64,000 nt of DNA, taken from NCBI GenBank assembly GCA_044892525.1, contig CM097888.1, positions 2,914,001-2,978,000 on the forward strand, given 5' to 3'. The DNA is from Schmidtea polychroa (Eukaryota). The translations under genes were made by a program, and so were the position numbers. Under the pieces are notes generated by a model. It searched no databases and was not told the DNA's origin. It saw nothing but the letters and a program-made list of their open reading frames with translations. Below, piece by piece: positions 39,706-64,000 of this stretch (its first letter is position 1; each line of letters begins with the position of its first letter).

Positions 39706-40739
39706 ATATTCTGTCACTCTTTTTTAATATTTGGAATAAAATAATTTAGTGTGAAATTATAACTAAAAGGTTAAAGGACAATTATAATTTTACTTAATAT
39801 TAACTCTGTTACTACTGGCTTAGCAAGTTTTCCAAGGGGGTCATTTTTACAGGTCTTCGATGATAGGCCTATTGAAGCCCTAATTGACTCCTCGGATTTC
39901 AAACAAATAAGTCAAGATCATGTACAAAATGACAAAAACTTAAATTTTTGAAAACAATATATTGTAAAAACTGTCCATGTGAAACATTTGGGCTGTTAAG
40001 AAAGTAGGTAGTTAGTAGCGTACGGCAGCAATGAAACATTTGGGCTGTCTAATCAAAATAGCAATTATTAGCAAACAATTTTACGTCCGCATTCAGATTT
40101 CAGAGAGTCCCTTGATACGCCTTGACCTTGTGGATTGCGTAATACATTGTTTGCCCATTGAATATTCAATTTAATTAAAATATATTTGAATTCCATTTTT
40201 ATTATTTGGCACAAATTAGAAATTTAAAATTAAAATTATTCAATGGAAATAAAATTGGTATGCATCAATAAAGGCGCAGAAATAAATGCGCAGATAAATC
40301 TATATTGCATCGTGAATTTAAGCATTTATAACTAGATTCTAAAAAGGCATATTGTGATTATAAAAAGTGATATGGACTAGCTGGAGATTTTCCTTTTCTA
40401 TCTACACCGTTTTTGACGCGCATTTAATAATATTTACATATTAATTTGTATTCATATTGACTGAATAGGACAATTAACATATTAAGCCAAATTTTTATTT
40501 TGAATTTTAAACTTTTCAAATTTAGTCGAAATGTCAATTCGTTGCGATGATGACAAAATGATTAATATTGGTGAATGAATTCATTAATTATATCCCATAA
40601 CCAATGTTCGGGTAGAACTAAGCCTATTGGGTTTTCATCAGTTAAATTCACATTGAATGAACCGTAACAACCACTATAAGATGCAATTCCATCATCCAGC
40701 GAAATTGAATTTGAAGTATTCCCATATAAATGTCTATAA

Positions 40740-47071: not shown

Positions 47072-47740
47072 TTATGAATTGTTAACCATTGATGCTTCTG
47101 CTGGCGGCTGTTGGTTGGTTTGGGTATTGATGTTGAGATAGGTCTGACTATTAGATTTCGGCTGGATTGGTTGATTACTCGGGGTTCGAGGTCGGAATGG
47201 GGTTGGGTTAAGATTTGTCAGGGGCACTTCTTGAGGATTTTGGTTCGAGGTTACTCTTATTGATGTCGAGATTCTACATCTATTTCGAACTTCGTAAATT
47301 TTCATGAATATTGGTAGACATAGGAGGAGGGTTTCTGCGATCACCACATATATGAGATAATGGGCGTTATTGATTTCGGGAGGTATTTTTGGCTTTTCTA
47401 CCAGATTTCCAAAATTCTCTTGTTGCATTTGTTGTTCCAACTGGTCGAATTGTTGAATTTGTTCGAGGATTTGTTTGTTTATCATTTTACAAATGGGATT
47501 CTTTTTACACATTGTTTGGATGTTGTTGATGTGTGATCGGGTTGATTGAATGGTTTGGATGATATGGGTTTTTACGGTCATCGGGTATGTGCATTGACTG
47601 GATTCTTGTTTAGGTTCTTGATTTTGATTTCGGTAATCTCGTACGATTTTCGGTTGGGCGTCTATTTGTTTGCTCTCCATCAGAATCATCAATACCATCA
47701 TTGTTATCATCATCTCGCCTCGCATGATACTATTATACAT
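47072..47740 (-). CDS. Accessory type-I membrane protein (signal peptide, Gln-rich helical ectodomain with 3 Cys, TM, Pro/Gln/Asn-rich tail)
   Basis: MMITMMVLMILM signal-like segment; YLIYVVIAETLLLCLPIFM TM; probable ATG 47725. Confidence 0.75.
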   Translation of the reverse strand: MYNSIMRGEMMITMMVLMILMESKQIDAQPKIVRDYRNQNQEPKQESSQCTYPMTVKTHIIQTIQSTRSHINNIQTMCKKNPICKMINKQILEQIQQFDQLEQQMQQENFGNLVEKPKIPPEINNAHYLIYVVIAETLLLCLPIFMKIYEVRNRCRISTSIRVTSNQNPQEVPLTNLNPTPFRPRTPSNQPIQPKSNSQTYLNINTQTNQQPPAEASMVNNS

Positions 47741-47780
47741 TCATTATGTTTATTTACAATTGGTTTTAATGACCCTTAAT

Positions 47781-48533
47781 TTAATGGTTCTGATTTGGAT
47801 TATTTTCGCCGATTCTCATCAAGGTGGACTCTGCTTTAATTACCCTGTGTCTTAACTCGGGCAGCATTTCCAATTGTCGGTCTTTTTCGCGGGCTTCTCT
47901 CTTTAGATGTCTAATTTCTTTTTCCAAGCGTCTAATTTCTTCCCTTTTCTTTTCAAGGTTTCTTTTTAGCTCGATTTGTAGGAGATCTTGTTCGTTTTCT
48001 TGCAGGTAATTTTGTTGTTGATGTTTTCTTTCTATTTCTCTATATTTGCGGACCCACTTCCTCATTTCTTTACTTTCCCGTTGGTTTTCTTCTAGTTGTC
48101 GTTTTAATTTATTTATAGCTGTTTGGCGCTCCTCCGCCTCAGTTTTCCAGTAGTCTTGGATTACCTCCTTTGCTTTGAAGCTTGCCCTCTCTTTCCATAG
48201 TTCTTCCGCTATCTTTTCCCAGTTTTTCCCTCGCTTCCTTTGTTCGTGTAGCCATTCATTTTCCTCTTCCGTTTCTCTTTTTATTTCCCCCAACGCTTCG
48301 CACTCTTTCTTTAACACCTTTATCATTTTCCGGTCCTCTAGGTATTTGTTTATTAATCTCCCGTTTTCGTATTTCTCTTCCCGTAACTCGGCCTTTAGCG
48401 TTTGTGTTTCTGTTGTTTCTGCCTCAATCTCTCCCTCTTCTACGTCGCTCATAATTTCTATCATTTCCTCGATTTTCATATCTATAATATGTACAGTTAA
48501 TGGTGCGCTATAGTGCGACTTATACGTATACAT
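47781..48533 (-). CDS. Accessory coiled-coil protein
   Basis: 250-codon E/K/R-rich heptad ORF; probable ATG 48479. Confidence 0.75.
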   Translation of the reverse strand: MYTYKSHYSAPLTVHIIDMKIEEMIEIMSDVEEGEIEAETTETQTLKAELREEKYENGRLINKYLEDRKMIKVLKKECEALGEIKRETEEENEWLHEQRKRGKNWEKIAEELWKERASFKAKEVIQDYWKTEAEERQTAINKLKRQLEENQRESKEMRKWVRKYREIERKHQQQNYLQENEQDLLQIELKRNLEKKREEIRRLEKEIRHLKREAREKDRQLEMLPELRHRVIKAESTLMRIGENNPNQNH

Positions 48534-48588
48534 TGATATAAAATTTAATAGTTTGGGTTACAGTCCCTTGAATACTTTTACAATACTT

Positions 48589-48591
<3 letters not shown>

Positions 48592-48628
<37 letters not shown>
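48592..48628 (-). repeat. A37 tract on the element's sense strand
   Basis: 37 consecutive T on the plus strand between two accessory ORFs. Confidence 0.95.
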
Positions 48629-48629
<1 letters not shown>

Positions 48630-48677
48630 TTTGGGATATACGTCCCGGTTTTTAGTTTTTCATCTTTTCATCCACCC

Positions 48678-49787
48678 TTATACGAAGGTTTCCTCCTGGC
48701 CTACATAACCTTCATCACTATCGACCGCGGGATGTAACTGTATCGCAATAGGGTCGTATGGTAGGTAATATTGGGGGATTTGAGCTCTCAATTCATTAAT
48801 TTCGTCTCTTAGAGCTCGAGTGATGTTCAATTCCTCGTCGAGCAGATAGGTGAGATACCTTGTCTCTTCGTCTTTCGCCTCTATCTGTTTGTCTAGGGCC
48901 TTGATTTTCTCGTCGCCCTTCCATTTTTCAATTTCTATTTCTAAGTTTTTAATATTTTCGGTGTACATTTTCCTTTCGTTTTCTAATTTTCTGTTTTTTC
49001 CCGCTAGGACCATGTTTCTTTGTTCCAGCGATCCTTGTAATCCATTAAGGTCTCTTTTCATCTCTTCTACCTGATTTACTAATTCCACAACCCGTCCCGC
49101 TTGTTGGGTTATCATCTCTTCCATTGCGGCATTCTCGTGCTCTCTTATGTCGCACTTCATTGCCAAATGTCGCTCAAACTCCATAGCCTTTGTTTGCCAG
49201 GTTTGGCTTCGGGCGGCGACCTTTCTCAACCTTTTCAATTCTTCCTTTATTATTAAATTCTCCTCCCATTTACCTTGTTCGCTTTCATATCCGAGTCTCA
49301 TGGGCAATTCTTTCATCTCTTTTTTCATTTCTCTGTTTTGTCTTTTCCATTTTCTCGCTTCTGCCACTAAGTGCATCATTTTCCTGTCTTCTATTTGTTT
49401 TTCCGCTTCGCGCTTGGTGTTCTCATCGGTAAGTCTTTTTCTCGCTTCCTGCACTAGCTGCTTTAAGTAGTGGCTGTGTGCTTCTTGGCGGGTATTTTCT
49501 AGTGACGCCCATTTTGATGCTCTTTTGCATGCTTCTGCTTCCGCTCTTAAGTTGTGTATTAACCATTGGTATTGACTATTCTCATCTTCTCTAGTTTCTT
49601 CGATGTGATTTCGGGTGAGATTAGTTAGTTGGAACATTACTTTGTTCCATTTTTTATTATGTTCTCGGGGAATTTGTGTCTTGTTGACATTGGTTGGGGC
49701 TATCGCAGTTTCGGTTATTTTCTCTTGTGTCATCTCTAAATCATAGACATCGATTAATCTTTTTATTATGAAAAGGAATTTATTCAT
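48678..49787 (-). CDS. Accessory long coiled-coil protein
   Basis: 369-codon heptad-rich ORF; probable ATG 49733. Confidence 0.8.
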   Translation of the reverse strand: MNKFLFIIKRLIDVYDLEMTQEKITETAIAPTNVNKTQIPREHNKKWNKVMFQLTNLTRNHIEETREDENSQYQWLIHNLRAEAEACKRASKWASLENTRQEAHSHYLKQLVQEARKRLTDENTKREAEKQIEDRKMMHLVAEARKWKRQNREMKKEMKELPMRLGYESEQGKWEENLIIKEELKRLRKVAARSQTWQTKAMEFERHLAMKCDIREHENAAMEEMITQQAGRVVELVNQVEEMKRDLNGLQGSLEQRNMVLAGKNRKLENERKMYTENIKNLEIEIEKWKGDEKIKALDKQIEAKDEETRYLTYLLDEELNITRALRDEINELRAQIPQYYLPYDPIAIQLHPAVDSDEGYVGQEETFV

Positions 49788-49925
49788 TATTTACTGTTTC
49801 TTGGGAAATTTTCGCATCATTTTTGGGTTTTCGTATTTAGGGTTTTCATACTATTATTATATAATATTTTATTGGTTATATACACCGATATATACAGATT
49901 ATTATATACAACATTATTCGATTGG

Positions 49926-51314
49926 TTACTCCGTTCTACCCTTCTCCTCTTTCCTCACGGTCATCTTGATATATATGGTATCATTTCTCGCCATATCTTC
50001 TACTCTTTGTTGTGAGATGAACGTAGGTGCTCCTGTTGCTGATCCTTCTTCGTTGAGGGGCCTCTGGTAAGCTATTTGATTCCCCGTTGTTTTGAAGCTT
50101 TGCTCATGTATACTTTGGTTGTTCATCAGAGTAATATCGATTTTTGCCTGGAACGGCCATTCTAATATTTCGTCGTATTCTCCTTTACATAACAGAAAGA
50201 AAATCGAAAAGTGCGTATCCAATCCGGTTCCGTCCCCGTTGGGATATACCTTCATTTTCATTTTGTACCCATTTTTCCAAGAATGGAATGTAGGACTTGT
50301 TATTCTTGTCTCTTCTCCGGTTTTTGCTTTTCGTATTCTTTCTTTTACTCCCGTTATTTTCCATATGTAGGGTGCTGTTGGGGTTATCTCATTTAGATTT
50401 ATTTCCCGTATTTTCTGATGTAGCTCCTTGGCCTGATTATTACTGATTTCTGTTCGGTTTATTTGCATCTTTATGTTTGCTCGGGCTTCTTCGAACGCTT
50501 CCCTTTCTTCTAGTAGTTCTTTGACTAACACTTTCAACGATGTTATCTCTATCTCCATTTGTTTTACTTTCTCTTCGCTTTCTTGTAGCGCAGTCGACCA
50601 CATTTCTGCGTGAGTTGAAGCATTTTCTACTAAATGATGTGGTAACTCACCTCGGTGTAGTAGTTTCTGACAACCCCATCTACCTAGTACACATGTCATT
50701 CTTTTCTTTGCGCATTCCCTTAGATGCTGTGCCACCTTCATTATTTCCCCTTGGTTACATCCGTTTGGGCATTCCCCACTGAACTCTGCACATACTCTCT
50801 CCTCTTGGACATTGTGATGTTTGAGGGTGAGATTTATCCACGTATCTATTTCTCCACAGTGTTCACATCTTTCCAATCTCTCTTCACACTGCCTTTGATG
50901 CTCTTTTTCTTCGCTTGCTCGAATGGTTTTATGGCACCTTTCACACTGGCCAATTCTGTACATACATTCTCCCATATGTTGTACTACCTTCCATATTACT
51001 CCTTTCCATTCGCATGGGGCATTTTTGCATCCCAGGTTGGTGTTTAACATGTCTTTCACTGCGGCTTTATCCTCGTTAGTGTCTTCTAAACTCGATATTA
51101 GTGTCTCTTTACACACCGGGCACCTCTGTGGTCTATTCTTTATTGCTTCACTGATACATTCTTTACATACTCTGCATCCACATTGCGTTTGGTGAGGTTC
51201 CTTTAACAACTTTTCACATATTCCGCACATAACATGTTTGTGTATTCTGATCGTTGTAGATTTTCGGACTTGCTCGACAATCTCTCTGAACTCTTCTCTT
51301 TGTCGTTTATCCAT
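49926..51314 (-). CDS. Full-length intronless TRAF-family protein (RING, TRAF zinc fingers, coiled coil, MATH)
   Basis: RING CGICEKLLKEPHQTQCGCRVCKEC...CPVC; fingers CKNAPCEW..HMGEC, CERC..HQRQC, CEHC, CPNGC..HLREC, C..GC..H; MATH PYIWKI...SPTF...GYKMKMKVYPNGDG...HFSIFF...GEYDEILEWPF. Confidence 0.95.
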   Translation of the reverse strand: MDKRQREEFREIVEQVRKSTTIRIHKHVMCGICEKLLKEPHQTQCGCRVCKECISEAIKNRPQRCPVCKETLISSLEDTNEDKAAVKDMLNTNLGCKNAPCEWKGVIWKVVQHMGECMYRIGQCERCHKTIRASEEKEHQRQCEERLERCEHCGEIDTWINLTLKHHNVQEERVCAEFSGECPNGCNQGEIMKVAQHLRECAKKRMTCVLGRWGCQKLLHRGELPHHLVENASTHAEMWSTALQESEEKVKQMEIEITSLKVLVKELLEEREAFEEARANIKMQINRTEISNNQAKELHQKIREINLNEITPTAPYIWKITGVKERIRKAKTGEETRITSPTFHSWKNGYKMKMKVYPNGDGTGLDTHFSIFFLLCKGEYDEILEWPFQAKIDITLMNNQSIHEQSFKTTGNQIAYQRPLNEEGSATGAPTFISQQRVEDMARNDTIYIKMTVRKEEKGRTE

Positions 51315-51399
51315 TCTATAATTATATGTACAAATAGTTCTTATCGATACAGGTTCGATATTTTATTTACAATTATTTACATTTTAAGCTAGGTTTGGT

Positions 51400-51783
51400 T
51401 TAGGGTTCGGAAGAGTCGGCTTCGTGCCCGCTCTCCTCTCTATTCATTAGCCATTCCGACCAGTCTTCTATTTCTGTCTGTTCTGCTTCCTCCCTCATTC
51501 GGTCTATTTCAATTTCCTGTCGACGGCTATATTGGGTTATCCTCTCTATCTCTCTTTGCATTTGTTCGATTTTTAACCTCTGGTCTTCAATTATCTTCAA
51601 ATAACTAAATCCTCTGTTCATACTCTCGATCAGGTTTCTGTGCATCGTCAGTCCTTGTTCTTGCAAATTGGACACTAATTGTGCTAATACGGCACATTGT
51701 TGCTTCCATAATTCTTCAGTTACTGTATTGTGGTTCATTTCGTTATTTCCTTGATCCATTCCTAATTTATATACACTTTTCAA
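51400..51783 (-). CDS. Small accessory coiled-coil protein with acidic C-terminus
   Basis: 127-codon ORF; probable ATG 51759. Confidence 0.65.
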   Translation of the reverse strand: MKSVYKLGMDQGNNEMNHNTVTEELWKQQCAVLAQLVSNLQEQGLTMHRNLIESMNRGFSYLKIIEDQRLKIEQMQREIERITQYSRRQEIEIDRMREEAEQTEIEDWSEWLMNREESGHEADSSEP

Positions 51784-51919
51784 CTCTTATGTAAATTTAA
51801 TTTTATTTTATGATTCCCGTTATTGTATAATATTGATACCGCGCTTATATAGAGATATAGTACTGTTATATACATAAGATATACTTACTTTTTACAATTA
51901 TATACAGTCATATTCCTTT

Positions 51920-54900
51920 CTATATACGTGAGTTTGGAGGGCGCTGAACGTTCCAGGCCTCCACCCACTGTCCTTGTTTGATATCACTTGGTCGTTTCAC
52001 TCGATGTTGGAAGTTTCTGATTCGGGTCATTTCTAGTTCTCCGCGATGTCGTTTATCTTTAATTATTTTTATTGTTCCCCCCGTTATGATTAGGAATGCC
52101 CCTGTTATTATTATCCCACTGATCCACATCATCTGCTTCACGCTTATACTCTCTGGTTTTTCCTTGTTGGTTAATGTTGATATCGCTTCTGTACTTTTCT
52201 CGTTTCCTCTTTTGCCATTTCCTTTCATCATTTCCCGTATTCTTGCTATTTCCTCGTTCATACCCTCCTTTGCCATCTTTTGTATTTTTTCCATCTCTTC
52301 CTCCGAAACATAGTTGTCCTGAGCTTCCTCACCAGTTTTCTTGTGCTTTCCTCCTTCGTTCTTTTCGTCGTGGTTTTTTCTTTTCTTTCCTCTTTTCCCC
52401 GGGTATCGTCGGCATTCTCTTTTTGATTCAATCCTCCAGATACAAACCGTGTATTCTTTCGGCGGCTGCTGCTGCGTCACATATTGATGGCATCTCTCAC
52501 CTGGTCCTAATCTTGAAATACAGACTTTGTGCTCTTTTCTAGGTTGGATCTGCGTTATTACTACTTCACCACCTTTTCCTAGGTGTACCTCTTTTCCTTT
52601 GACGTTCGTTATTCTCTTCCCGTCTCGATTTCGGTATGCTTCTTGTATTCTTACTTCTGTTATTGGTTCTGTGTCCTCATTTATCAGTACTAGTTTCTGA
52701 TACGCTCTAGACATGCATCTTCCTAGTATGCACCTTTCCTTTAAGTCCCATTCTTCCTTTAAATCCCACTGCTGCTCTTGTGCTTGCTTTCTCTTTTCTT
52801 GTTTTAGTTCATCCTCTTTGCTATCTTGATTCTCCGCTTCTTTGGTTTCTTTTATCGTTCTCGTCCCTCCCTGAGCTGTTACTAACTCTATCATGGTAAG
52901 CATAATTATCATTAATATCATATTTGTCTCTATTTCTTTGTTAGTGAAAGGTAGGCATACCCTCTGTTTTCCATTATTCGATTTTTCCTCCTCTTTGGTC
53001 TTGGTTCTCGGGCTGTTTCCCTCTCTTTTCGTATCCGAATCCTTGTTTTCTGGTTTACCCTCCTCCGGTTCTCTTTTCTCTTTATCCTCCTTTCGGTCTT
53101 TTCCGTTATTGTCATCGTGTTTATCTCCCTCGCTGTCATTTAAAATGTCGTCCTCGACATTTATATCGTTCAATAATCTGCGATATGCTGTTAGCACTCT
53201 GTTTCTTGCTAATTTTGCTTCGAATTCAAACTCTTTTCTACCCGTTGCAGCATGTCTCTTTCTATTCCATTCTTTAACTAACTCTCTCAATTGCATACGA
53301 CGATGTTTCCCAATTCGTTGTTGCTCGTTCTGATTTTGCGTGAATTTTAGGTCTTCTCTATTTAATACTATTAAAATAATTTTAGGCGTCCCCCCCTTAG
53401 TTAGGGTATTCTTTACCATCGCATTTTCTCCGTTTTCGTAGAATTCGTTTACATTTATCGCATATTTATTATTTGGTGGTACTCTCCAGGTTAATAATAA
53501 TTTCATTGCTTCTAGATTTTTCCGTACTGTATTCCATTGAAACTGAGATGTGTTTTTGCACATATTTTCAACTTCTTCTTCTGTCGCATTTTTGCAAATA
53601 AATCTGATCATTTCTAAGTTTGGCTGTATGGTTGCCCAGTCCAAGGTGGAATTTCCTTCATTGGACCTTTCGTCTAGTTTCGATCCTGATTGATGTAGGA
53701 TGTGGAGTGTTTTTGGGTGTATTTTCGTTATAGCTGCATACATCATGGCGGTTTCACCTTGTTCATTTTTCGTGTTGGTTTCCTCGCCCATCTCCCCAAG
53801 GATTCTCATGATCGTTATTGTTCTATTCTCTTTTGCAGCTAGTATTGCTTGTTGTAGGGGTGTTCGGGAATCCTTCGTTACCATCGTAAATGCTCGAGGC
53901 AAGAAGGTTTTGATTTTCCCGATATCTAAACCCGTGGTTTGATCTCTTGCGTATGTGTGTACGGCTTTTATTATTTTGGACAATATTATTTCGTCTGGCA
54001 GCTCTAGCATTTCCTCAAAGAACACTTCTTTTGCTTTGCGTATTATTGCCTCTTGATCTATACTCATTGATTTGGTTTCGATGACGTTGTTTGTGACCGT
54101 TCGGTTCGTTGTTGACTTTGATTCCCTGGATTTCTCATACCTTATTTTCGTTTTCTTTCCGTTTGGATTATTGATTCGTTCCTCTGCTGTAAGTATTTGG
54201 ATAATATCCATGTAATTCTCGCGGATGTTATTCATCGTGTCCATCATATATAACACACTTACTGTTTCCCAATATTTATGTCGTACTTGGTTAGTAAATT
54301 GGAATAGTGATTTTTCGAATGTGTCGATTCGCTTTTTTTTTAACTGTTCGTCTTTGTGATTTGTGAATTTTATCCCTCGTTCTAGTAATTGATTCGGGAT
54401 TTCGAATAAATGATGTCCTTTCATAGCTTCTCTCATCAGCGTGTTCTCTCCTCTCGTGAACGCTTCGTTTACGTTGATCATATAATCGTTTCGAATTGGA
54501 TTTCTCCATGTAATTAATATTCCGGTAATTGTCGTCAGTTTTTCTTTGATCGCTGTTAGCAATCCATCATACATGTTTCCGACTTCCCGATTGTCCTCAT
54601 ATGATAGTAGTTCCATCAATGACGTGAACGCCTCGGTGCTTCTCCCTCTGATAGCATGATGTAGAGCGTTTTTCCGCTCGTGGTCTTGTGTAGTTATTTT
54701 CGATCCGGTATCGAGTAATGCAGTTATAATGTCTTTTGTTTTGCCTCTGTTTGCGGCTATCATTAATGGTGTGTAACCTTGGTTGTTTGTTTGTTCTGTT
54801 GATCGCTTGCAGTCGTGAAATGCTTCTATTGTTTCTAGTATTTGCTCGTTGTTACCTACTTTCATGAGTTTGTGTAATGGTGTGTCTCCGTAATGATCTG

Positions 54901-57900
54901 TTATTGTAAATAATATTGGCCATTGGCTTTTGACTACTCGCAATAATGGGTGTGTCCTTTCTCTATTTGCATAGTTCTCGATCATCGTCAATAATCCTCC
55001 TAATATTTCGAAATCTAATCGATCTTTCGCCCATCCAGGTATTTTAATTTTTACCTCTTTTACAATCTTTTCCGCTTCTGATGGTTGGATACCTAATCGT
55101 CCAGTGATCGGTTCTGCGAGTTGTTGCATCATGTTCATTCGGTAGGTTTGCGAACGTGTGGTTAATGTACGGCCTTCTGGTTGACTAGTGGCTGTTTTTG
55201 GAATTGATTTGCATCGTGCCACGTTTACGTATATTGGTCTGGTAAAGGGGTTATTTACCAATTTCACTCTTACATTAGTTTCGCCTACGAATAAGATCTC
55301 ATATGGTCCTTTTCCGTTGCGTTGTAACTTTTTTGTGGTTCCTGGAATTAATTCCGGGGTTTCTATCATTACCCAATCACCTGTTTGGAACGTATGTTGC
55401 TTCACGTTTTTCTTTCGATCGTGTAAATCTTTATAACTTTCCTGGTAGAACTTGATATTTAATCCCGCAGTTTCCCAAATTTCTTGCATTCTTTCCTTGA
55501 ATTTCGTAACATAATCATCGATCTCCATATACTGCGATATCGGTGGTTGGTATTCCAGGTCCATTGGCATATTACATTCTCTTCCGTACATTAATTTGAA
55601 TGGGCTCATTTTCGTTGATGCGTGAATCGACATTCTGTACGCCATAAGACATAGGTTTATATATTCGTCCCAATCTCGTTGGTGACGGTCAACGTAGTTT
55701 GATAACATTTGTATAAGTGTTCCATTAAATCTTTCCGTCATCCCATTGGTTTGAGGGTGGTATGGAGATGTTCTTAGTTTTGCTATTTTGAAGTAATTTG
55801 TTACTTCGCTCATTATCTCACTCATAAAATTTGTTCCCTGATCGGTTAAGATTTGTTTTGGTGTTCCATATCGGCAACATATCTCTTCTACCAAAATTTT
55901 TGCGATTGTTTTAGCTTTTTGGTCTGGCATCGCGAATGCTTCTGGGAATTTCGTAAGAAAGTCTGTGATCACCAGAATGTAAACGTTTCCTTTATCTGAC
56001 TCTGGTAGTGGACCAACTACGTCCATGGATATCATTGTCATTGGTTCTATTGGTACTGGCATTGGCGTTAAAGGTGCTTTCCATTTCGATCCCGTATTCT
56101 TCCTGGTTGCACAAGTTAGACAATTTTTTACCCATTCGGTTACATCTTCCGTTAACGTAGGCCAAAAATATTTCTGTTTCATTCTTGCTAACGTCTTTTT
56201 CGATGACATATGTCCTCCCAATCTCCCATCGTGATATTGCGTTAGTAACTCTTTTCGTCGGTTTTCCGGTATACACATTAATCGTTTTTCCCCATCCATT
56301 ATCAGCAACCAATCTTTCTCTATAATATATCGGTGTCGGTGTTTATCCATATGTTCTTTTAATTTTTGGTCTTTCGCATATACATCTGTCTGTCCGGTTT
56401 TTATATAATCGATAATTTGTTTTAATTCCGCGTCCTCTTGTTGGTCCTTTCGCAATTGACAGAAATCCAAATCTTCCGCTACTATTAAGCATATGCGTTG
56501 CATTTCTGAATCCACCAAATCTGGGAAAATAAATCTTGACATACAATCGGCGTTGGCATTTGCTCTTCCCGCTTTAAATTTTATAAATGGGGAGTATTCT
56601 TGCAATTGCATGGCCCATCTCATCAGTCTACTGGACGCTTCTTTATGTTGCCCTAACCACACTAATGGTTGATGGTCTGTGGTTATGCATATCTCATGTC
56701 CCCATAGTAAATATCGGAAGTGTTTGATAGCTTGTATTATAGCCAATGCTTCTCGTTCTGTTACCGAATAGTTCTTTTCGTGCTTTTTGAATGTTCGACT
56801 GTAATACCCGATTACTCTCTCTTTTCCCTCATCGTCCAATTGTCCCAGAATCGCGCCTGCCGCGTACCCGCTTGCATCCGTTGCCAATAGAAATGGCTTC
56901 TTAAAATCTGGGTGTACGAGGATAGGTGCTTCGATTAGTTTGTCTCTCAGCGTTTCAAACGCCTCTTGTTGTTCCTTCCCCCATAAGAACGAAATGTCCT
57001 TCTTTACTAATTCCTGGATTGGTTTTGCAATTCCTGCATAATTTTTGATAAATTTGCGATAGTATCCGCATAATCCTAGAAATTCCTGAACTTGGGTGAC
57101 AGTTTTCGGTGCTGGACATGTTTTTATTTTCTCAATGTTTCTTGGATCTGGCTCCTTTCCTTTAGCTGACACTATGTGTCCTAAAAACGTGACTTTTTCC
57201 TTTGCCCAATCGCATTTTGATGGTTTGAGTTTGAGTTTCCACTGTCTTAATCTAATAAATACGTTTCGGATATCTTCTAGATGTTGTTCAAATGTCGCTG
57301 AATAGATTAGTAAATCATCAATATATACCATACATTGTTTGATTCCATGGGTGACAAAGTTCATACACCGTTGAAATGATGCTGGTGCGTTAGTCAGTCC
57401 AAATGGCATTTTCCTGAATTGATATAGATCTCGTCCCAACGTGAAAGCGGTTTTCTCTTTGTCCTCATCTTTGACTTTAATCTGCCAGTATCCACTTTTT
57501 AGATCTAAAGAAGTAAAATATGCTGCCCCTTGCAACATCAATAACATCTCATTGATGTCCGGCAATGGATAGGTATCTCTCTTGGTCACTGCGTTTAACT
57601 TCCGATAATCGATACAGAATCGTTGGGTGCCATCTTTCTTTTTCACCATGACCACTGGGAATTGCCAGGGTGAGCAACTTGGTTCGATTACTTTTGCGTC
57701 TAGCATCTTTTGTACTTCTGTTTCGGCTATTTCTTTCTGCATTTCTGCTAGCTTGTATGGTCTCAATGCAATTGGGGTTTCGTCTATGAGTGGTATTGCA
57801 TGTAAGGTAACATCACATGTACCCAAGTCTAAATCTGAGATGGCGAATATATCTTTATATTCTACCAACAATCGGTGCAATTTTTTCTTTTCGTCATTCG

Positions 57901-60900
57901 TCAACAACATACTATCTATTGTCCATAATTCATCATCTTTGATCATCTCGTTGGTCACTTTCGGTAATTCTATGTCCATCATTGGGGTCAATCTTCCCAA
58001 TTTTTCGTTCTCATAAATGATTTTGTCTTCCTCTTCGAAATTCGTGATGTTGAGCGGTATCACTCCTTCTTGGTTTATTGTGATTATTTCTCTTGCGAGT
58101 GGTAATTCTCGTCGCTTTTCAAATGACTTGCTTGGTTCAAAGATAACTTCTCCTTCCATACCCGTATCCACTTTTATCTGACAAATCATCTGTGATTTTG
58201 CTGGTACTATTATTTTTTCTGGACATCTGATGACTGAATTCATTTTGCATATTCTACCGGTTTTGTCTTTTAAACACATGGTTGTTAAGTCAATTACGAC
58301 TTCTTTTAACAATTCTGGCATCAAATCCGTTCCGATTATGCATGGTACGCTAAGTTTTGGTATTACTGCCAAATACGTTTCAATTTCGTTGTCCTGGTAT
58401 CTCAATGTAGTCCACCATCTTCCGACCACGTCCACTGTTTCTTTACTACATGCTATGATGTGAATTGTTGTTGATTCGATATCCTTCCAGTGTTTACTGG
58501 GGATTTGATTAATCGCTATCGCTGATACATTAGCTCCGGTGTCTATCATAGCATTGGTTTCTTTACCATTGATTTGAATCATAACTGTTACTGCTGGACC
58601 TCCAGGTAAACTCATCGCTGCTATTGTTCTTACGTCATCTGCTTGATCTACACTTTTGGTACGTCGTGTTGGCATATAATGCATACCGGGTTGACTCGGT
58701 AATTGCGGATACATATTTTGTGTCATGGTCAAAGCTGTTTGTGGTCCCACGATATCCGGTGGTATATAGCTTCCATTGGCGATCCAGGTGTTTGTCTTTT
58801 CCTTTTCCCAATATGGTGCCGTTTCCATTGGTTTTTCGTTTGGGTTTCTGTTTGGATAAAGACATTTATCGTTCCCGTTATCATCGTCGTCACTATCGCT
58901 GTTAGATGATTGGCTTCTAAATCGGTCCAAGAATTTTGGCTTATTCTTTTTCAATTGTCGTCTTGTTGCTTCATCGTACATTACTTTCCGGAATCGTCTG
59001 CCTACTTCCTCGTCGGTTCCTTTAATCTTTGTTAATATTTTAATCAATCGCTTTATCCGATGAATGTCTTTTGAGTGGCCATGTAATACCATGGTCTTAG
59101 CTAAAAATGGTAAGAAGCCTACTATCATTTTCCAATTAACTTTCTTTTCCCGCTTGTATATATCGAAACAAGCTAACATTTGTGTTAGTATTACTCTGAC
59201 TATCTGAATTATGAGTATGATCCCTAATATCCCGGCCATCATTTGTCCAAAAACTAAGAATCTTCCCCACATTGCTTTCATCATGTTTGACGTAGCTTGT
59301 TGAAAATGGTCTGGCGATAATAGCAGCTCGTAATTCGGGCCTGATTGATAGTTTGTGCCCCCAGTTATTGTTACCATATTAGACAAAATGGATTCTCGTC
59401 TGGCTGGGAAGAGTACGTTGAGTCGTGCTGTTTCTAGATCTTCTGGGGAATACATACCACCGTTTGACACGTCTATAGGTTTGAAATCCAGCTCTGTGGC
59501 GAGTTCTATTAATCCAAATTTTTTGGGCTCCTCGGATATGGTTTTTCCCGGTAACATCATCCATTTCCCATCGGGCCTTTCATATAAAGGTCCGTATGCA
59601 TTAGAACAGTTAAAGAGATTTGGGTAGAAACCCACTGGATTCATAATTCTAGTGACTGGTTGGACGAATCGATTTTGTCCTTTATAACGGATTTCTAATT
59701 CATTTGCACATCTCTTTTCGGGTAGTATGGATTTTTCTGGCATTCGTGCATACGTCTTGGTACACTGGTATGTGTACATCACTTCTCCTACCATTCTACC
59801 AAAGTGTCCATCTGGTAATGGGAGTGATGGCATCGTGTTATCTGGGTGCGTTATCGCAATAGCTAGCTTTGTTTTCAATATTTCTTTATTCAATGAACAA
59901 TCGTTTTGTATTAGATCGTAATATACTTTTTGCAAGGTCGTTTGTCCGCGATGAAATAGAAAATCCATTTTATTATTTGCATATAAGTATAGTTTTACGT
60001 CCTCCGTTGCTATCTTTCCCACTGCTCTATCGATTATTTGTCTCGACATATAGATACCTGCGTAATTGGTTTTATATACTATACTGTCACATTTGGTGGT
60101 TTCTTTCTCTTTGATAAATCTCATACCTAGATCTGGATCGTCTGTGATTAATGCTGTTGGTGTCTTCTGCGTTGAAAGTCTCTTTTCTCTGGGAGATGGT
60201 GGCATTGGTTTTCCATTTCGCATTCTCACTCTGTCGTTTCCATCCTCGTCGTTCTCGTTCTCATATATTTCTCCTTTTACTTCATTGAACAAAGCACTTT
60301 TTAACAGTTGGAGTCGGCATTTTTGGGTATTAGCTTCATAGATTATAGTTGATACTCCTGTCCTGCATACGTTTTCTGTAGCTCTACACGTTGGGTTGGT
60401 CTTCATTTGGTAATTATTTGCGTCAAATTGCGCTTCGTATTCTTTTAATTCGACCGTGTAAGACTCGATCACTACAACTCCCGATATTACCTCGCCTCGG
60501 ATCGTATACGTACCTCCGTTACATGACCCATCTGATGATTTTACTTTTCCGGATACGTAAACACTTTCGGTTTTAATCATTCCAGTTTGTCCGTGAATTG
60601 TCACTCCGTTATGCATTTTTAGCGCTCCGGTTCTAAATAGCTCTTTACAATCCTCTCGTTGTATTGATACGATTTCTTTATCCAGACCGGGTAGTATAAG
60701 AGTCGAATACGAATATTGTCCACAGTAATATGCGAGTACCTTTTTTGATACTACGCATTCCCTTGCTTGCGTTCTGATGAAATCTGATTCTTGATATACA
60801 TGGTAAGTAACTTTTGTTCTCACGATGTCCAATTTGTTGGGTGAGGCTTGTCTGCATTCTTCTATGTCTCTCAATGAGTATTTATCTCTCATTATCATGT

Positions 60901-63900
60901 TATCACAATCGTAGATGGTGAAACCTGTTGCTCCACTTGTGCACAACATCCATATCATCATAGTCATCATTAACGAATTTATTGATGCTTTTCTGCTTGC
61001 GGGATCTTTCATCGGTAGTTCCCATTCTAGTTCATTTAACAGTTTTTTCAATCTAACTTGCATCGACCTTTCTTGCTCATTTTTCCGTGGCGCTTGTATC
61101 AGTCTTTTCCATCCTCCTGCACGAATAATGTGTGGTTCAATAGTATTCTCTATGATTGAAACGGTCATTTCTACATGATTTGCAAACTGTTTATTTGGTA
61201 TTTTCCTCGCAGCTAGTCCCATCAAATTATACATCAAATAAGTGATTACCACTAGGTGATGCTCGTCATCATTTGCATTTGTCGTGAGCTGCTCAATCAC
61301 TCTCTTTGTTTCGTCCCAATCCGTTTTGGTGGTTTTCGTTTTCTCTTTGATTAACTTTGGGATTATCCCCGAAATGGTGTGCCATAATTGTCTAGCTTCC
61401 GTACTGGCTACTTTCCGTTGCCACAGACGTCTAAGTTGTGGGTTTGTTATTATTAACATATCTTTTAACAATTCTCGTATCCATTTTTCTCCTCTTTCGA
61501 TCGTTGGTTGGGCTTCCTTTAGATCCCATACTATTTTATCCAATTTTTCTAATCGAACTTGCCCTTGTTCTTGCTTTAATTGTTCTTTGGTTTTGAACTC
61601 AGACTTTTCTCCTTGTTTCTTGGGTCTTCCTTTTGCCCGTTTTTCCATCATCGTTCCTGCTTCTCTGGTATTTTCGTAATTCGGATTTCTTTCGTTATCC
61701 GTTCTGGGTAATGAGCTATCGTTATTTCTTAGCCACTCATTCCATTCGTCTATTATTTTGTCGGTTTGACTTTCTGGTGTTACTTTCGTTGGTTCTCTTT
61801 GCTTCTGGAATTGTTCATCCGTTTCGGTTTCCGTAGTATTGTCGATGATTTCTTCGATGTTCAGTTTCGTTGGTTGTTGATAACTCGTTGATGGCTGGTT
61901 ATTAGTCCACATTTCGGCTCCTGTCGGCCATCTCACTAATAGCGGTGATCTTTCTCCTGGTTCATCGTCACTATCTTCCAGGATTATCTCTTCAACTTCT
62001 TCAGTTTCATTAGATTTACTTGGTGCTTTGTTCGGACTTGGAGTACTCAAACTGCCTTTTGTTGGTTTAATAATTTTACTTTTCCTTTTTAACGGTTTTC
62101 CCAACGTTTCTGCCATTGTTAATACATTTGTCTCTTCCAATCTCATGGGGGTTATCCCGACGTCTGCATTATCGTCTAGTGATTTTCCGAACAGTTGCAG
62201 ATGGAATGGAGTTTCATATGCTAATTTCTTTTTTAATTCTCTAATTTTTGTTGTTGGATGCACCTCTAGTTCCTCGATGCTCTTGTCTGGATACTTGATT
62301 CGGATGTGATACCTCTCCTGGGTGTCTTGTGCCCATTCCTGATTTCTCCATTTTCGAATAATTTGTTCTAGCTGTTCTGGATACCATTCATTATATTGCC
62401 GGTATTCCTCTATTGCCTTTGCCATTCCTCTCAGATTGTGGATGTCCTCTGATGTCTTTAAGATGATGTTAGCCAACGCTACTACTTGGCGTCTTTGATT
62501 TTTCGCTCCCATTGCTAAGATATCGCCTAATTGTTTATATCTTTCTTTCTCTTCTCGTTCTCTTGCTTCCGTCGCTTCCTCGCCGTCCATATCAGCATAT
62601 TCACGTTCCTTTTTCCTCATTGCATGAATATGTCTCGCTTCATTTTCGCTTTCTGATGTGACATCCGTCTCGCCTTCGTCATCTGATGTCTGTTCCCTTG
62701 CTTCCTCTTCATATTTTGGAGGTTCCTCTTCTTCTTCCTCCGATTCACTTTCTGTCTCACCAATGTCTGTTTCCACGAAGGTTCCTTTCCGGATTTCCCA
62801 TTCCTTACTTTCTGCATTCCACACTCTTTCCCATGGGGTTCGTCTGCAGGATCTGGTGCTTAATTTCGTGATTTTTCCTTGTAGTTCTTTTTCTTTTAAC
62901 CATTGTTGGTGGATTTTAATTATTTCCGTAGATTTTTGATATAACGTTTTCATCCGGTCTCGTATTTCTTTTTGATAGGTTACATCTCTTGTTCGAAATT
63001 CATCCATTGGTACTATCCTGATTATCTGGTGATTGTCCCACATACCCATTTCGCTTAACGAGGTGTCGTCCTCCGCTCGTAATATTATCTTATCGTACAT
63101 CATGACTACATCATCCACCATACCATCACTACTTTCGCTACGTACCTTTTCCGTTATCTCTTGGTTTATTTTTGATACCAAGTCATCTACTGTACTCTGA
63201 TTGCTCATTTTTATTCGTCGTTTTTCTTCGTTCGGTAACCATATGGTTATTTCCAACCTCTGTGGCTGGGTTTCTTTTAACCTTCCATATTTGTGGATCA
63301 AATTTATGGTTCTCCAATCACTCATTCGGAGCATTTCTGTATCTCGCAACCGGCTCATTAGTTCGTACATGGCTGGGGCTCGTCTGGTGATGAGTAAATC
63401 CCAGTTGTCTTCTACTTGTTCTTGAATTTGTTTGATCAGCTTATCCAGGTTTCGTCTCAGAGTACATTGTTTTATTTGTTCTAATTTCAATTTGATATTA
63501 AAATCATATTCTGCCTTGGCATCTTTAGCCCAATCGTAAAGGTTGGCTGGTTGTTTTTCTTTATGCAACTTCAGTATTTGCGTTTCCCCTGGCCATATTA
63601 GTGCATCTACTAAGTGCATATCTGGTTTGATCGGTTCTCCTTGGTATTGATACAGATATTCTTTCTTTCTCGAACTTCCCAAATGCTCTCGTATCCAATC
63701 GAAAAGTTCGTCGGTGACTGTATTTTTTATCCACATTCTTTCAAGTCCTCTACTCGTTCCGATTTTTATTACATACCGCGTGGTATCGGCCTGCTTCATT
63801 TTTTCCATATAATTTTTTATAATTGATTTTTCCTCGTTTGGTATTAAATCTTTCTCGTTTCTTTCCAATTTCATCACTTTTTGCACGAATCGCCTGAATG

Positions 63901-64000
63901 GTATTACGTCAATGAACTCTTGGTTCCTCACTACTACTGGGAGTATTTCCGCTACTTGTTTTATCGCTTCCTCCTTCCCTTTTCTCAACTTTATTTCGAT
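51920..64000 (-). CDS. Giant retroelement polyprotein (>4,020 aa, 5'-truncated): UBLx3, Bcl-2-like, signal, Env (chuvirus/gB-type), TM, PR, RT, RH, IN, ANK, membrane protein
   Basis: One uninterrupted frame. The listed 'start' at 63988 is TTG and the frame stays open to 64000. Confidence 0.95.
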   Translation of the reverse strand: MEIKLRKGKEEAIKQVAEILPVVVRNQEFIDVIPFRRFVQKVMKLERNEKDLIPNEEKSIIKNYMEKMKQADTTRYVIKIGTSRGLERMWIKNTVTDELFDWIREHLGSSRKKEYLYQYQGEPIKPDMHLVDALIWPGETQILKLHKEKQPANLYDWAKDAKAEYDFNIKLKLEQIKQCTLRRNLDKLIKQIQEQVEDNWDLLITRRAPAMYELMSRLRDTEMLRMSDWRTINLIHKYGRLKETQPQRLEITIWLPNEEKRRIKMSNQSTVDDLVSKINQEITEKVRSESSDGMVDDVVMMYDKIILRAEDDTSLSEMGMWDNHQIIRIVPMDEFRTRDVTYQKEIRDRMKTLYQKSTEIIKIHQQWLKEKELQGKITKLSTRSCRRTPWERVWNAESKEWEIRKGTFVETDIGETESESEEEEEEPPKYEEEAREQTSDDEGETDVTSESENEARHIHAMRKKEREYADMDGEEATEAREREEKERYKQLGDILAMGAKNQRRQVVALANIILKTSEDIHNLRGMAKAIEEYRQYNEWYPEQLEQIIRKWRNQEWAQDTQERYHIRIKYPDKSIEELEVHPTTKIRELKKKLAYETPFHLQLFGKSLDDNADVGITPMRLEETNVLTMAETLGKPLKRKSKIIKPTKGSLSTPSPNKAPSKSNETEEVEEIILEDSDDEPGERSPLLVRWPTGAEMWTNNQPSTSYQQPTKLNIEEIIDNTTETETDEQFQKQREPTKVTPESQTDKIIDEWNEWLRNNDSSLPRTDNERNPNYENTREAGTMMEKRAKGRPKKQGEKSEFKTKEQLKQEQGQVRLEKLDKIVWDLKEAQPTIERGEKWIRELLKDMLIITNPQLRRLWQRKVASTEARQLWHTISGIIPKLIKEKTKTTKTDWDETKRVIEQLTTNANDDEHHLVVITYLMYNLMGLAARKIPNKQFANHVEMTVSIIENTIEPHIIRAGGWKRLIQAPRKNEQERSMQVRLKKLLNELEWELPMKDPASRKASINSLMMTMMIWMLCTSGATGFTIYDCDNMIMRDKYSLRDIEECRQASPNKLDIVRTKVTYHVYQESDFIRTQARECVVSKKVLAYYCGQYSYSTLILPGLDKEIVSIQREDCKELFRTGALKMHNGVTIHGQTGMIKTESVYVSGKVKSSDGSCNGGTYTIRGEVISGVVVIESYTVELKEYEAQFDANNYQMKTNPTCRATENVCRTGVSTIIYEANTQKCRLQLLKSALFNEVKGEIYENENDEDGNDRVRMRNGKPMPPSPREKRLSTQKTPTALITDDPDLGMRFIKEKETTKCDSIVYKTNYAGIYMSRQIIDRAVGKIATEDVKLYLYANNKMDFLFHRGQTTLQKVYYDLIQNDCSLNKEILKTKLAIAITHPDNTMPSLPLPDGHFGRMVGEVMYTYQCTKTYARMPEKSILPEKRCANELEIRYKGQNRFVQPVTRIMNPVGFYPNLFNCSNAYGPLYERPDGKWMMLPGKTISEEPKKFGLIELATELDFKPIDVSNGGMYSPEDLETARLNVLFPARRESILSNMVTITGGTNYQSGPNYELLLSPDHFQQATSNMMKAMWGRFLVFGQMMAGILGIILIIQIVRVILTQMLACFDIYKREKKVNWKMIVGFLPFLAKTMVLHGHSKDIHRIKRLIKILTKIKGTDEEVGRRFRKVMYDEATRRQLKKNKPKFLDRFRSQSSNSDSDDDDNGNDKCLYPNRNPNEKPMETAPYWEKEKTNTWIANGSYIPPDIVGPQTALTMTQNMYPQLPSQPGMHYMPTRRTKSVDQADDVRTIAAMSLPGGPAVTVMIQINGKETNAMIDTGANVSAIAINQIPSKHWKDIESTTIHIIACSKETVDVVGRWWTTLRYQDNEIETYLAVIPKLSVPCIIGTDLMPELLKEVVIDLTTMCLKDKTGRICKMNSVIRCPEKIIVPAKSQMICQIKVDTGMEGEVIFEPSKSFEKRRELPLAREIITINQEGVIPLNITNFEEEDKIIYENEKLGRLTPMMDIELPKVTNEMIKDDELWTIDSMLLTNDEKKKLHRLLVEYKDIFAISDLDLGTCDVTLHAIPLIDETPIALRPYKLAEMQKEIAETEVQKMLDAKVIEPSCSPWQFPVVMVKKKDGTQRFCIDYRKLNAVTKRDTYPLPDINEMLLMLQGAAYFTSLDLKSGYWQIKVKDEDKEKTAFTLGRDLYQFRKMPFGLTNAPASFQRCMNFVTHGIKQCMVYIDDLLIYSATFEQHLEDIRNVFIRLRQWKLKLKPSKCDWAKEKVTFLGHIVSAKGKEPDPRNIEKIKTCPAPKTVTQVQEFLGLCGYYRKFIKNYAGIAKPIQELVKKDISFLWGKEQQEAFETLRDKLIEAPILVHPDFKKPFLLATDASGYAAGAILGQLDDEGKERVIGYYSRTFKKHEKNYSVTEREALAIIQAIKHFRYLLWGHEICITTDHQPLVWLGQHKEASSRLMRWAMQLQEYSPFIKFKAGRANANADCMSRFIFPDLVDSEMQRICLIVAEDLDFCQLRKDQQEDAELKQIIDYIKTGQTDVYAKDQKLKEHMDKHRHRYIIEKDWLLIMDGEKRLMCIPENRRKELLTQYHDGRLGGHMSSKKTLARMKQKYFWPTLTEDVTEWVKNCLTCATRKNTGSKWKAPLTPMPVPIEPMTMISMDVVGPLPESDKGNVYILVITDFLTKFPEAFAMPDQKAKTIAKILVEEICCRYGTPKQILTDQGTNFMSEIMSEVTNYFKIAKLRTSPYHPQTNGMTERFNGTLIQMLSNYVDRHQRDWDEYINLCLMAYRMSIHASTKMSPFKLMYGRECNMPMDLEYQPPISQYMEIDDYVTKFKERMQEIWETAGLNIKFYQESYKDLHDRKKNVKQHTFQTGDWVMIETPELIPGTTKKLQRNGKGPYEILFVGETNVRVKLVNNPFTRPIYVNVARCKSIPKTATSQPEGRTLTTRSQTYRMNMMQQLAEPITGRLGIQPSEAEKIVKEVKIKIPGWAKDRLDFEILGGLLTMIENYANRERTHPLLRVVKSQWPILFTITDHYGDTPLHKLMKVGNNEQILETIEAFHDCKRSTEQTNNQGYTPLMIAANRGKTKDIITALLDTGSKITTQDHERKNALHHAIRGRSTEAFTSLMELLSYEDNREVGNMYDGLLTAIKEKLTTITGILITWRNPIRNDYMINVNEAFTRGENTLMREAMKGHHLFEIPNQLLERGIKFTNHKDEQLKKKRIDTFEKSLFQFTNQVRHKYWETVSVLYMMDTMNNIRENYMDIIQILTAEERINNPNGKKTKIRYEKSRESKSTTNRTVTNNVIETKSMSIDQEAIIRKAKEVFFEEMLELPDEIILSKIIKAVHTYARDQTTGLDIGKIKTFLPRAFTMVTKDSRTPLQQAILAAKENRTITIMRILGEMGEETNTKNEQGETAMMYAAITKIHPKTLHILHQSGSKLDERSNEGNSTLDWATIQPNLEMIRFICKNATEEEVENMCKNTSQFQWNTVRKNLEAMKLLLTWRVPPNNKYAINVNEFYENGENAMVKNTLTKGGTPKIILIVLNREDLKFTQNQNEQQRIGKHRRMQLRELVKEWNRKRHAATGRKEFEFEAKLARNRVLTAYRRLLNDINVEDDILNDSEGDKHDDNNGKDRKEDKEKREPEEGKPENKDSDTKREGNSPRTKTKEEEKSNNGKQRVCLPFTNKEIETNMILMIIMLTMIELVTAQGGTRTIKETKEAENQDSKEDELKQEKRKQAQEQQWDLKEEWDLKERCILGRCMSRAYQKLVLINEDTEPITEVRIQEAYRNRDGKRITNVKGKEVHLGKGGEVVITQIQPRKEHKVCISRLGPGERCHQYVTQQQPPKEYTVCIWRIESKRECRRYPGKRGKKRKNHDEKNEGGKHKKTGEEAQDNYVSEEEMEKIQKMAKEGMNEEIARIREMMKGNGKRGNEKSTEAISTLTNKEKPESISVKQMMWISGIIITGAFLIITGGTIKIIKDKRHRGELEMTRIRNFQHRVKRPSDIKQGQWVEAWNVQRPPNSRI
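52065..52925 (-). other. C-terminal membrane module of the polyprotein (internal signal-like segment, Cys-containing ectodomain, TM)
   Basis: NMILMIIMLTMIELVTAQG (~52870-52925); six Cys in CILGRC...KVC...RCH...VCIW...REC; MMWISGIIITGAFLIITGGTI TM (~52070-52132). Confidence 0.6.
53370..54905 (-). other. Two ankyrin-repeat modules after the integrase
   Basis: YGDTPLH, QGYTPLMIAA, RKNALHHA; then SRTPLQQA, QGETAMMYAA, EGNSTLDWA. Confidence 0.85.
55210..56290 (-). other. Integrase domain
   Basis: HDGRLGGH...CLTC zinc finger; D (56021-56023, SMDVVG), D (55841-55843, TDQG), E (55733-55735, TERF), giving DD35E; GPYEI motif. Confidence 0.97.
56535..57900 (-). other. Reverse transcriptase and RNase H domains
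   Basis: KKDGTQRFCIDYRKLN, YPLP, LDLKSGYWQI, MPFGLTNAP, YIDD (57314-57325), FLGH; RH TDAS (D 56876-56878), EREALA, TDH, NADCMSR. Confidence 0.98.
58315..58590 (-). other. Retropepsin aspartic protease
   Basis: AMIDTGANVS (DTG 58535-58543) and CIIGTDLM. Confidence 0.95.
59165..60975 (-). other. Envelope glycoprotein, chuvirus G / herpes gB-type class III fusogen-like
   Basis: Signal SLMMTMMIWMLCTSGATG followed by FTIYDC. The ~550-aa ectodomain has 14 Cys in the pattern seen in chuviral-type G (YDC, EC, C..YCG, C, GSCxG, C, C...). Furin site REKR at 60179-60190; TM FLVFGQMMAGILGIILIIQIV. Confidence 0.75.
61085..61560 (-). other. Bcl-2-like helical domain
   Basis: IENTIEPHIIRAGGWKRLI resembles BH2 (cf. 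Bcl-xL LEPWIQENGGWDTF). A hydrophobic alpha5-like segment HLVVITYLMYNL sits at BH1 spacing; NWGR is not conserved. Confidence 0.55.
62110..63790 (-). other. Three ubiquitin-like (beta-grasp) domains
   Basis: About 63560-63790 (YVIKI...YQYQGEPIKPDMHL), 63005-63260 (LEITIWLPNEEKRRIKMSNQSTVDDL...TSLSEMGM) and 62110-62315 (YHIRIKYPDKSIEELEVHPTTKIRELKKKL...LFGKSLDD) follow the UBL hydrophobic pattern. Confidence 0.65.

Follow-up and report, generated by a model that had tools for sequence, protein, structure and literature searches.

A probable Burro-type retroelement of Schmidtea polychroa with ankyrin, TRAF, ubiquitin-like and Bcl-2-like cargo that evolves under purifying selection

Introduction

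We analysed a stretch of 64,000 nucleotides from Schmidtea polychroa (NCBI GenBank assembly GCA_044892525.1, contig CM097888.1, positions 2,914,001 to 2,978,000 of the forward strand; hereafter the window), in which Bcl-2-like, ankyrin, TRAF, ubiquitin-like (UBL) and membrane-protein domains form the 3' half of one minus-strand long terminal repeat (LTR) element of the Ty3/gypsy type, 29,768 bp (29.8 kb) in total length. An earlier reading made from the letters alone (the sequence-only reading) had taken these domains, at positions 47072..63790, as a host-modulation kit in the manner of large DNA viruses. Their co-occurrence holds, with all of them on the minus strand of the 29.8-kb element, and the interval points to the correct element but omits the Gag and an upstream RING-only open reading frame (ORF), both outside the window. 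We report that comparison of two subfamilies of the element shows strong purifying selection on the cargo, one ORF of 222 codons excepted, and we argue that its ankyrin, TRAF, UBL and Bcl-2-like parts probably aid the survival of the producing cell via death and ubiquitin signalling, and probably not via IkB and NF-kB.

Organization of the element

The element is bounded by a 5' and a 3' LTR of 3,843 bp each, which are letter-for-letter identical and flanked by a 4-bp target-site duplication; it extends past the window edge to its other end on G000:C4 (window-equivalent 72771), and the N stretches of the window all fall outside it. Of the 4,732 codons of ORF1, 4,026 lie inside the window and the rest in the neighbouring stretch, where the frame opens with a retrotransposon Gag and three CCHC knuckles. 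Along ORF1 the order is Gag, UBLs, Bcl-2-like domain, envelope protein (Env), protease, reverse transcriptase, RNase H and integrase (PR-RT-RH-IN), two ankyrin blocks and a membrane protein, and five ORFs of 128, 478 (the TRAF), 370, 258 and 222 codons follow downstream. The features needed first are these:

51920..64000, minus: giant ORF1, the part within the window (4,732 codons stop to stop; start outside the window)
63545..63769, minus: possible ubiquitin-like domain 1, no match alone
62996..63268, minus: ubiquitin-like domain 2, weak
62081..62317, minus: ubiquitin-like domain 3, best supported, without C-terminal diglycine
61016..61588, minus: divergent Bcl-2-like domain, BH2-like end retained, BH1 degenerate, directly before the Env signal peptide
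59186..60979, minus: Env, with predicted internal signal peptide, Monjiviricetes/glycoprotein B (gB)-like fusion ectodomain and transmembrane (TM) helix
55301..58585, minus: Pol (protease, reverse transcriptase, RNase H and integrase in Ty3/gypsy order, by Pfam)
53231..55123, minus: two ankyrin-repeat blocks (Pfam Ank_2, E 3e-17)
49926..51362, minus: intronless full-length TRAF (RING, zinc fingers, coiled coil, MATH), a separate ORF of 478 codons
43004..46846, minus: 3' LTR, 3,843 bp, equal to the 5' LTR

The Env matches a Monjiviricetes-type fusion glycoprotein at a Pfam E of 5e-70, and the features that define errantiviruses are present, namely LTRs, the PR-RT-RH-IN order and a fusion glycoprotein with predicted signal peptide and TM helix. 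A dUTPase between protease and reverse transcriptase gave no Pfam match in two 200-aa pieces, the published call for Burro elements having been made with HHpred.

Of 367 candidates for the TRAF gene in the genome search, the best 40 reach 99-100% identity to it, and the same 4,732-codon frame recurs in about 59 of the 150 scored matches to the Bcl-2-like domain (938 candidates; counted by hand). The family is young and high-copy. We consider it probable that the insertion is recent and that the element is a Burro-type Ty3/gypsy LTR retroelement with an envelope gene, a judgement held jointly with that on the cargo.

Purifying selection between subfamilies

The window's element was compared with subfamily B, three copies of which were fetched and share 79% DNA identity with it. 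All eight ORFs are open in these three copies, and in a fourth, closer copy two accessory ORFs are broken. The ratio of nonsynonymous to synonymous change (dN/dS) was computed pairwise by NG86 against two subfamily-B copies, which are not independent of each other, with synonymous sites near saturation. ORF1 gave 0.05, reverse transcriptase and integrase 0.01 and Env 0.05; among the cargo, the UBLs gave 0.01-0.06, the ankyrin blocks 0.03-0.04, the TRAF 0.09-0.10 (against copy B1 0.10, confidence interval 0.05-0.16), the C-terminal ectodomain of ORF1 0.10, and the two coiled-coil ORFs 0.05 and 0.15. The Bcl-2-like domain keeps 94% protein identity between the subfamilies at saturated synonymous sites. 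The sequence-only reading had named neutral evolution of the accessory domains as an outcome that would refute it; the ratios are far below 1.

Identity of the cargo domains

Among the three candidate UBLs, the third reaches Pfam ubiquitin at E 0.0035, short of the Pfam cut-off in single-sequence scoring, and the second alone shows weak likeness to beta-grasp families only; a joint profile of eight UBL rows matches ISG15/ubiquitin. The C-terminal diglycine is missing from all three. The two ankyrin blocks arose by an old internal duplication (25% identity between them, E 5e-15) and their best matches are generic ankyrins: no IkB, p105 or Bcl-3 stands among the best 60 of 161 and the best 60 of 240 PDB matches to the two blocks, and no Pfam match to PRANC or F-box was obtained in the element. 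The TRAF ORF matches MATH at E 2e-27 and is 27% identical to a TRAF2 across 92% of the query, with TRAF2/3 MATH and TRAF5/6 RING-zinc-finger structures as its best PDB matches. Its RING carries Cys where His is usual, and the serine triad of TRAF2/3 is replaced in both subfamilies.

The Bcl-2-like domain is harder to place. Alone, it reaches a Pfam E of 0.034, below the cut-off, and phmmer against PDB returned 0 matches. Homologous domains fill the same pre-Env position in sister families, and a profile was built from eight retroelement-only rows, without host Bcl-2. Against PDB this profile has Bcl-2/Bcl-xL in all of the best 60 of 154 rows (top E 2e-4), against six other Bcl-2-family loci of the genome it gives an hhalign probability of 94.8%, and seven of its eight rows match PF00452 at E<=0.1. 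The AlphaFold model is of low confidence (pLDDT 52); Foldseek with that model listed Bcl-2-family chains in every row except one, none at E<=0.001, and in the VIA comparison BHRF1 scored Z 7.2 with an rmsd of 3.7 across 116 residues, and an unrelated Ndc10 domain reached the same score. Profile and model together point to a Bcl-2 fold and homology, with weak structural agreement.

An intact BH1, the NWGR-type motif, serves BH3 binding in anti-apoptotic Bcl-2 proteins. No intact NWGR-type BH1 was found in the window's domain: BH1 is replaced in this family, with a 3-residue insertion, and the BH2 Trp ahead of GGW is His. A search of the UBL-Bcl-2 region against 1.84 billion representatives returned 0 homologues and an atlas search with the Bcl-2-like domain gave no usable match, neither of which is a sign of novelty. 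Outside this family there are 909 candidate Bcl-2-family matches (e.g. at G000:C4:89.9-90.8 Mb), of which 150 were scored, and many of them fall within long frames of retroelements.

Sister families with and without an IAP

No Pfam match to BIR, and no trace of one, was found in any ORF scanned of the window's family. The BIR search of the genome led to a second abundant family (150 scored of 309), from which two copies were fetched:

G000:C2:40.10-40.14 Mb, same genome: copy of the BIR-bearing sister family
G000:C2:79.96-80.00 Mb, same genome: copy of the BIR-bearing sister family

The sister shares with the window's element a collinear series of RING ORF, ORF1, 128-like ORF, TRAF, two coiled-coil ORFs and membrane ORF, with integrase 81% and Env 55% identical. 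What it alone has is a MATH domain in ORF1 and a 392-aa BIR-RING inhibitor of apoptosis (IAP) ORF between the TRAF and a coiled-coil ORF; this IAP matches the window's element solely through RING. The sister has the published Burro1 layout. Trees of integrase and Env over nine rows join both families at 100/100, being midpoint-rooted and open to long-branch effects.

The upstream RING-only ORF of the window's element (L001:6101-6607, outside the window) is of IAP/RNF34 type (Pfam E 4e-11) without BIR, and is also found in subfamily B and in the BIR-bearing sister. A primer-binding-site 16-mer (L001 ~6890-6915), which we take to be tRNA-Pro-like, is present at 1,074 places in the genome and its reversed form at 0; because several of the 1,074 lie ~20 kb from BIR matches, a common primer-binding site is likely for the giant families.

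Smaller sister families have the UBL, Bcl-2-like and C-terminal membrane modules and gave no ankyrin or TRAF match. Their ORFs (L017, L020, L024, L025) run to ~3,050-3,330 codons and show, after integrase, a signal peptide and beta-rich repeats like fibronectin type III (FN3), followed in unbroken copies by a TM helix; in one of them the next ORF resembles, by eye, a DEDD-type exonuclease.

Spacers between the downstream genes

Five spacers (51786-51920, 51314-51400, 49733-49926, 48479-48678 and 47725-47781) each carry an AT-rich AG acceptor-like site before the next start and a TGTA/AATAAA-type signal after the preceding stop, with a spacing of 55-217 nt, in three lineages. In a tally of 16 spacers from three related lineages, WWWAG stands within 6 nt of the start in 14, against an expectation of 3.5 from shuffling and a rate of 7-11% over all ATGs, and the other two have GTAG. 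TGTAWA is found in the 60 nt after the preceding stop in 14 of the 16, where 1.8 would be expected. A splice-donor-like GTAAGT, common to subfamilies A and B, lies ~30 nt past the ORF1 stop (~51880-51890, minus).

The flanks of the accessory ORFs suggest an operon-like processing. Operon spacers of M. lignano are reported to peak near 100 bp (PMC8629364), and because the spacers of 55-217 nt resemble those of flatworm operons as that source describes them, we propose alternative cis-splicing or spliced-leader trans-splicing. The idea that a spliced leader also supplies the start of ORF1 was dropped, since copies do not conserve the frame ahead of the first Met. Coverage by presumed-RNA runs (30/30 bins, 16 and 2) came with no silent-stretch control and is not used as evidence. 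Burro and spliced leader were not found together in the literature searched; this family or its transcripts may already be described in Grohme 2018 or Lee 2026.

Membrane proteins and remaining features

The features other than those above are as follows, the two membrane proteins being predicted from hydropathy:

52085..52933, minus: C-terminal membrane protein of ORF1, predicted internal signal peptide 52877-52933, ectodomain ~52361-52756, TM helix 52085-52141
51400..51786, minus: accessory ORF, 128 codons, kept in sister families, no family match
48678..49790, minus: coiled-coil-like accessory ORF, 370 codons, conserved C-terminus
48592..48632, minus: 41-nt A-run in a spacer; subfamily B has a short run there and the BIR-bearing sister a long one
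47781..48557, minus: coiled-coil-like accessory ORF, 258 codons
47072..47740, minus: 222-aa ORF, predicted signal peptide, short ectodomain, one TM helix (47303-47359), P/Q/N-rich tail
43538..44332, minus: 264-codon ORF within the LTR, ~38% identical in subfamily B, no family match

The C-terminal ectodomain is modelled as a seven-strand beta-sandwich (pLDDT 52) with transthyretin-like best neighbours; its profile gave hints of Tie2/NCAM2/ELFN2 FN3 (E 0.035-2.4), and structure comparison gave no confirmation of an FN3 assignment. Foldseek rows to cytolysin domain 4, at rmsd 6-8 A, mean a beta-sandwich only. The 222-aa ORF is fast-evolving and has no family match; an atlas lead from it to herpesvirus membrane glycoproteins (0.76-0.78) stayed under the lead threshold, and candidate TRAF-binding motifs in its tail were dropped, being by eye not conserved between subfamilies. 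No immune-receptor likeness was found for either membrane protein.

The C-terminus of the 370-codon ORF (48678-48700) is a conserved ETFV that agrees with the class I PDZ-binding motif, which some viral oncoproteins also carry; the IAP-bearing sister does not retain it. Short repeats at window 36973-37565 and 40001-40658 recur in the opposite flank of the element (L002), and a tandem array of ~74-nt units (L001:5037-5530) lies in the 5' leader ahead of Gag.

Role of the cargo

Our preferred interpretation, which we hold to be probable, is that the ankyrin, TRAF, UBL and Bcl-2-like cargo is kept by selection and aids the survival of the cell that produces the element via death and ubiquitin signalling, rather than via IkB/NF-kB. 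In the mechanism proposed, two internal signal peptides, one before Env and one before the last domain, would thread ORF1 through the endoplasmic reticulum. After cleavage, the Env signal peptide would anchor a cytosolic Gag-UBL-Bcl-2 part in the membrane. Env would be luminal, as would the C-terminal beta-sandwich with its short tail, and Pol and the ankyrin blocks would be cytosolic. The downstream ORFs would come from separate mRNAs, made by one of the two splicing routes named above with the acceptor before each start and the poly(A)-type signal after each stop. In host TRAF/TBK1/caspase pathways, the TRAF and the upstream RING protein may work as E3 ligases or as adaptors, and the Bcl-2-like fold may serve as a protein-binding scaffold and not as a classical BH3 trap. 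As to the host, planarian TRAFs are reported to be required for cell survival (PMC7586133) and to have undergone expansion (PMC6109357), and the induction of some of them is described as TBK1-dependent (PMC13563047).

The sequence-only reading had likened the domains to the kit with which poxviruses evade immunity: a Bcl-2 that traps BH3, ankyrins that mimic IkB, receptor decoys and an infectious particle. The gB-like Env, itself under purifying selection (dN/dS 0.05), speaks for it, and so do the viral Bcl-2s BHRF1, KsBcl-2, CNP058 and A179L among the VIA rows (Z 5.6-7.2) and the herpesvirus lead of the 222-aa ORF, which is below the lead threshold. However, the parts peculiar to such a kit are not supported. 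The Bcl-2 likeness stands by profile, and Foldseek agrees in nearly all listed rows at low model confidence and poor E, but the BH1 of a BH3 trap is lost. The ankyrins proved generic in the PDB matches considered. For NF-kB as the target, the 2026 study of S. mediterranea describes no clear homologue and divergent RHD genes only (PMC13563047). A search for RHD (PF00554) in the genome of the element came back blank, with no signal from a control, and is given no weight. The supposed membrane decoys are indeed two predicted membrane proteins, one with an ectodomain modelled as a generic beta-sandwich, but without likeness to immune receptors. For an infectious or cell-persisting element there is the Env, and particles and spread are hypothetical. 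The link to death signalling in stem cells fares better in that Burro1 is reported to be protective (PMC13465017), but the BIR-RING IAP concerned is absent here. On balance we regard an immune-evasion kit of this kind as quite unlikely.

Another explanation is that the cargo serves the life cycle of the element, in Gag trafficking, ubiquitin-dependent budding, Env folding and particle attachment. The UBL, Bcl-2-like and C-terminal membrane modules are part of one polyprotein with Gag, Env and Pol, they also occur in the smaller sisters that lack an ankyrin or TRAF match, and UBLs without a diglycine fit such a use. Against it, the full TRAF, the RING-only ORF and the sister's BIR-RING IAP are separate genes of a host-signalling type, and the IAP of Burro1 is reported to block caspase-mediated death (PMC13465017). 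We keep this explanation as a tentative one, less favoured than survival of the producing cell. That the cargo is hitchhiking host DNA evolving neutrally, or a chance resemblance, can hardly be maintained. Single-sequence Bcl-2 and UBL scores below the Pfam cut-offs and the two accessory ORFs broken in one of the four related copies fetched would agree with it, but the dN/dS ratios have already largely refuted it, the frames stay open despite saturated synonymous divergence, and the cargo is collinear even in a family with an Env identity of only 55%.

Several results weigh against the preferred interpretation. The 222-aa ORF is near-neutral or misaligned (dN/dS 0.44-0.58 at ~25% identity), and some linkers are as low as the domains (0.03). 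Because of these linkers a low dN/dS does not single out the cargo, and with synonymous sites near saturation the selection test shows use by the replicating element and not which use. The model of the Bcl-2-like domain is of low quality, with a protein outside the Bcl-2 family as its first VIA row. Post hoc choice in related lineages limits the splice and poly(A) patterns, and for 3 of the 16 spacers the second ATG was taken; among the records that hold sequence of the element none is on record as RNA, and no spliced joint is among those shown in a presumed-RNA run. For BURRO1, PMC8532177 reports that RNA interference failed to rescue the smedwi-2 phenotype and that the de-repressed element is found mainly in differentiated gut cells.

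A bolder picture, which we consider unlikely, is that of a cell-to-cell infectious errantivirus whose modulation genes form an operon cut by the spliced-leader machinery (enriched in flatworm stem cells) and serve as swappable cassettes; it would thrive without the IAP of Burro1 by means of a TRAF ligase of its own and a Bcl-2 fold of non-canonical type. The two abundant sister families, with and without an IAP, offer a natural contrast for asking if an IAP is required for the host-transposon mutualism that has been reported, and the spacers give a testable proposal for how five or six downstream genes are expressed from a single-promoter LTR element.

Comparison with known systems

Poxviruses and herpesviruses carry host modulators such as vBcl-2, vankyrins and viral TRAF binders. 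The window's element has the same kinds of domains, and viral Bcl-2s are among the structural neighbours of its Bcl-2-like domain; unlike these viruses it is a retroelement with cargo fused in a polyprotein, and it encodes a TRAF itself and not a TRAF binder.

Closer to it are the platyhelminth errantiviruses, six of which, with the order Gag-Env-Pol, are listed for S. mediterranea (Chary & Hayashi 2026, PMC13524379). They share with the window's element this order, a gB-type Env and many near-identical copies, and the window's Env is nearest to Smed_errantivirus_5, about half identical as judged by eye; ankyrin, Bcl and TRAF do not occur in the main text of that paper.

The closest likeness is to the Burro elements, judged from their published description. 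Burro1/GYPSM1 and Burro-2 to -4 (Jurka 2007; Grohme 2018) are giant gypsy-like planarian LTR retrotransposons, per PMC6431247, and there Arkhipova & Yushenova (2019) describe a polyprotein with MATH/TRAF, BIR, ankyrin, BCL2-like and Ubi2/SUMO-like domains and an in-frame Env, and propose Burro as proviruses that meddle with apoptosis and ubiquitination. Lee et al. 2026, per PMC13465017, report that the Burro1 BIR-RING protein shields stem cells from caspase-mediated death. Shared with Burro are a length of ~30 kb, long LTRs, a giant ORF1 with Gag, three CCHC knuckles, UBL, BCL2-like domain, Env, PR-RT-RH-IN and ankyrin, the in-frame Env between Gag and Pol, TRAF/MATH and coiled-coil (Smc-like) cargo, and accessory ORFs. 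The differences are a TRAF that is a full-length downstream ORF and an ORF1 of 4,732 codons here versus 4,873 aa in Burro. Because the BIR-IAP ORF and a MATH domain within ORF1 are absent, we call the element Burro-type and not Burro1 proper. Since the cargo and the idea of meddling with apoptosis are already published for Burro elements, a retrotransposon with such cargo is not new as a headline, and the inference of the sequence-only reading has been in print since 2019 (PMC6431247). What is added here is the selection test domain by domain, the contrast of an IAP-less family with its IAP-bearing sister, and the operon-like pattern of signals.

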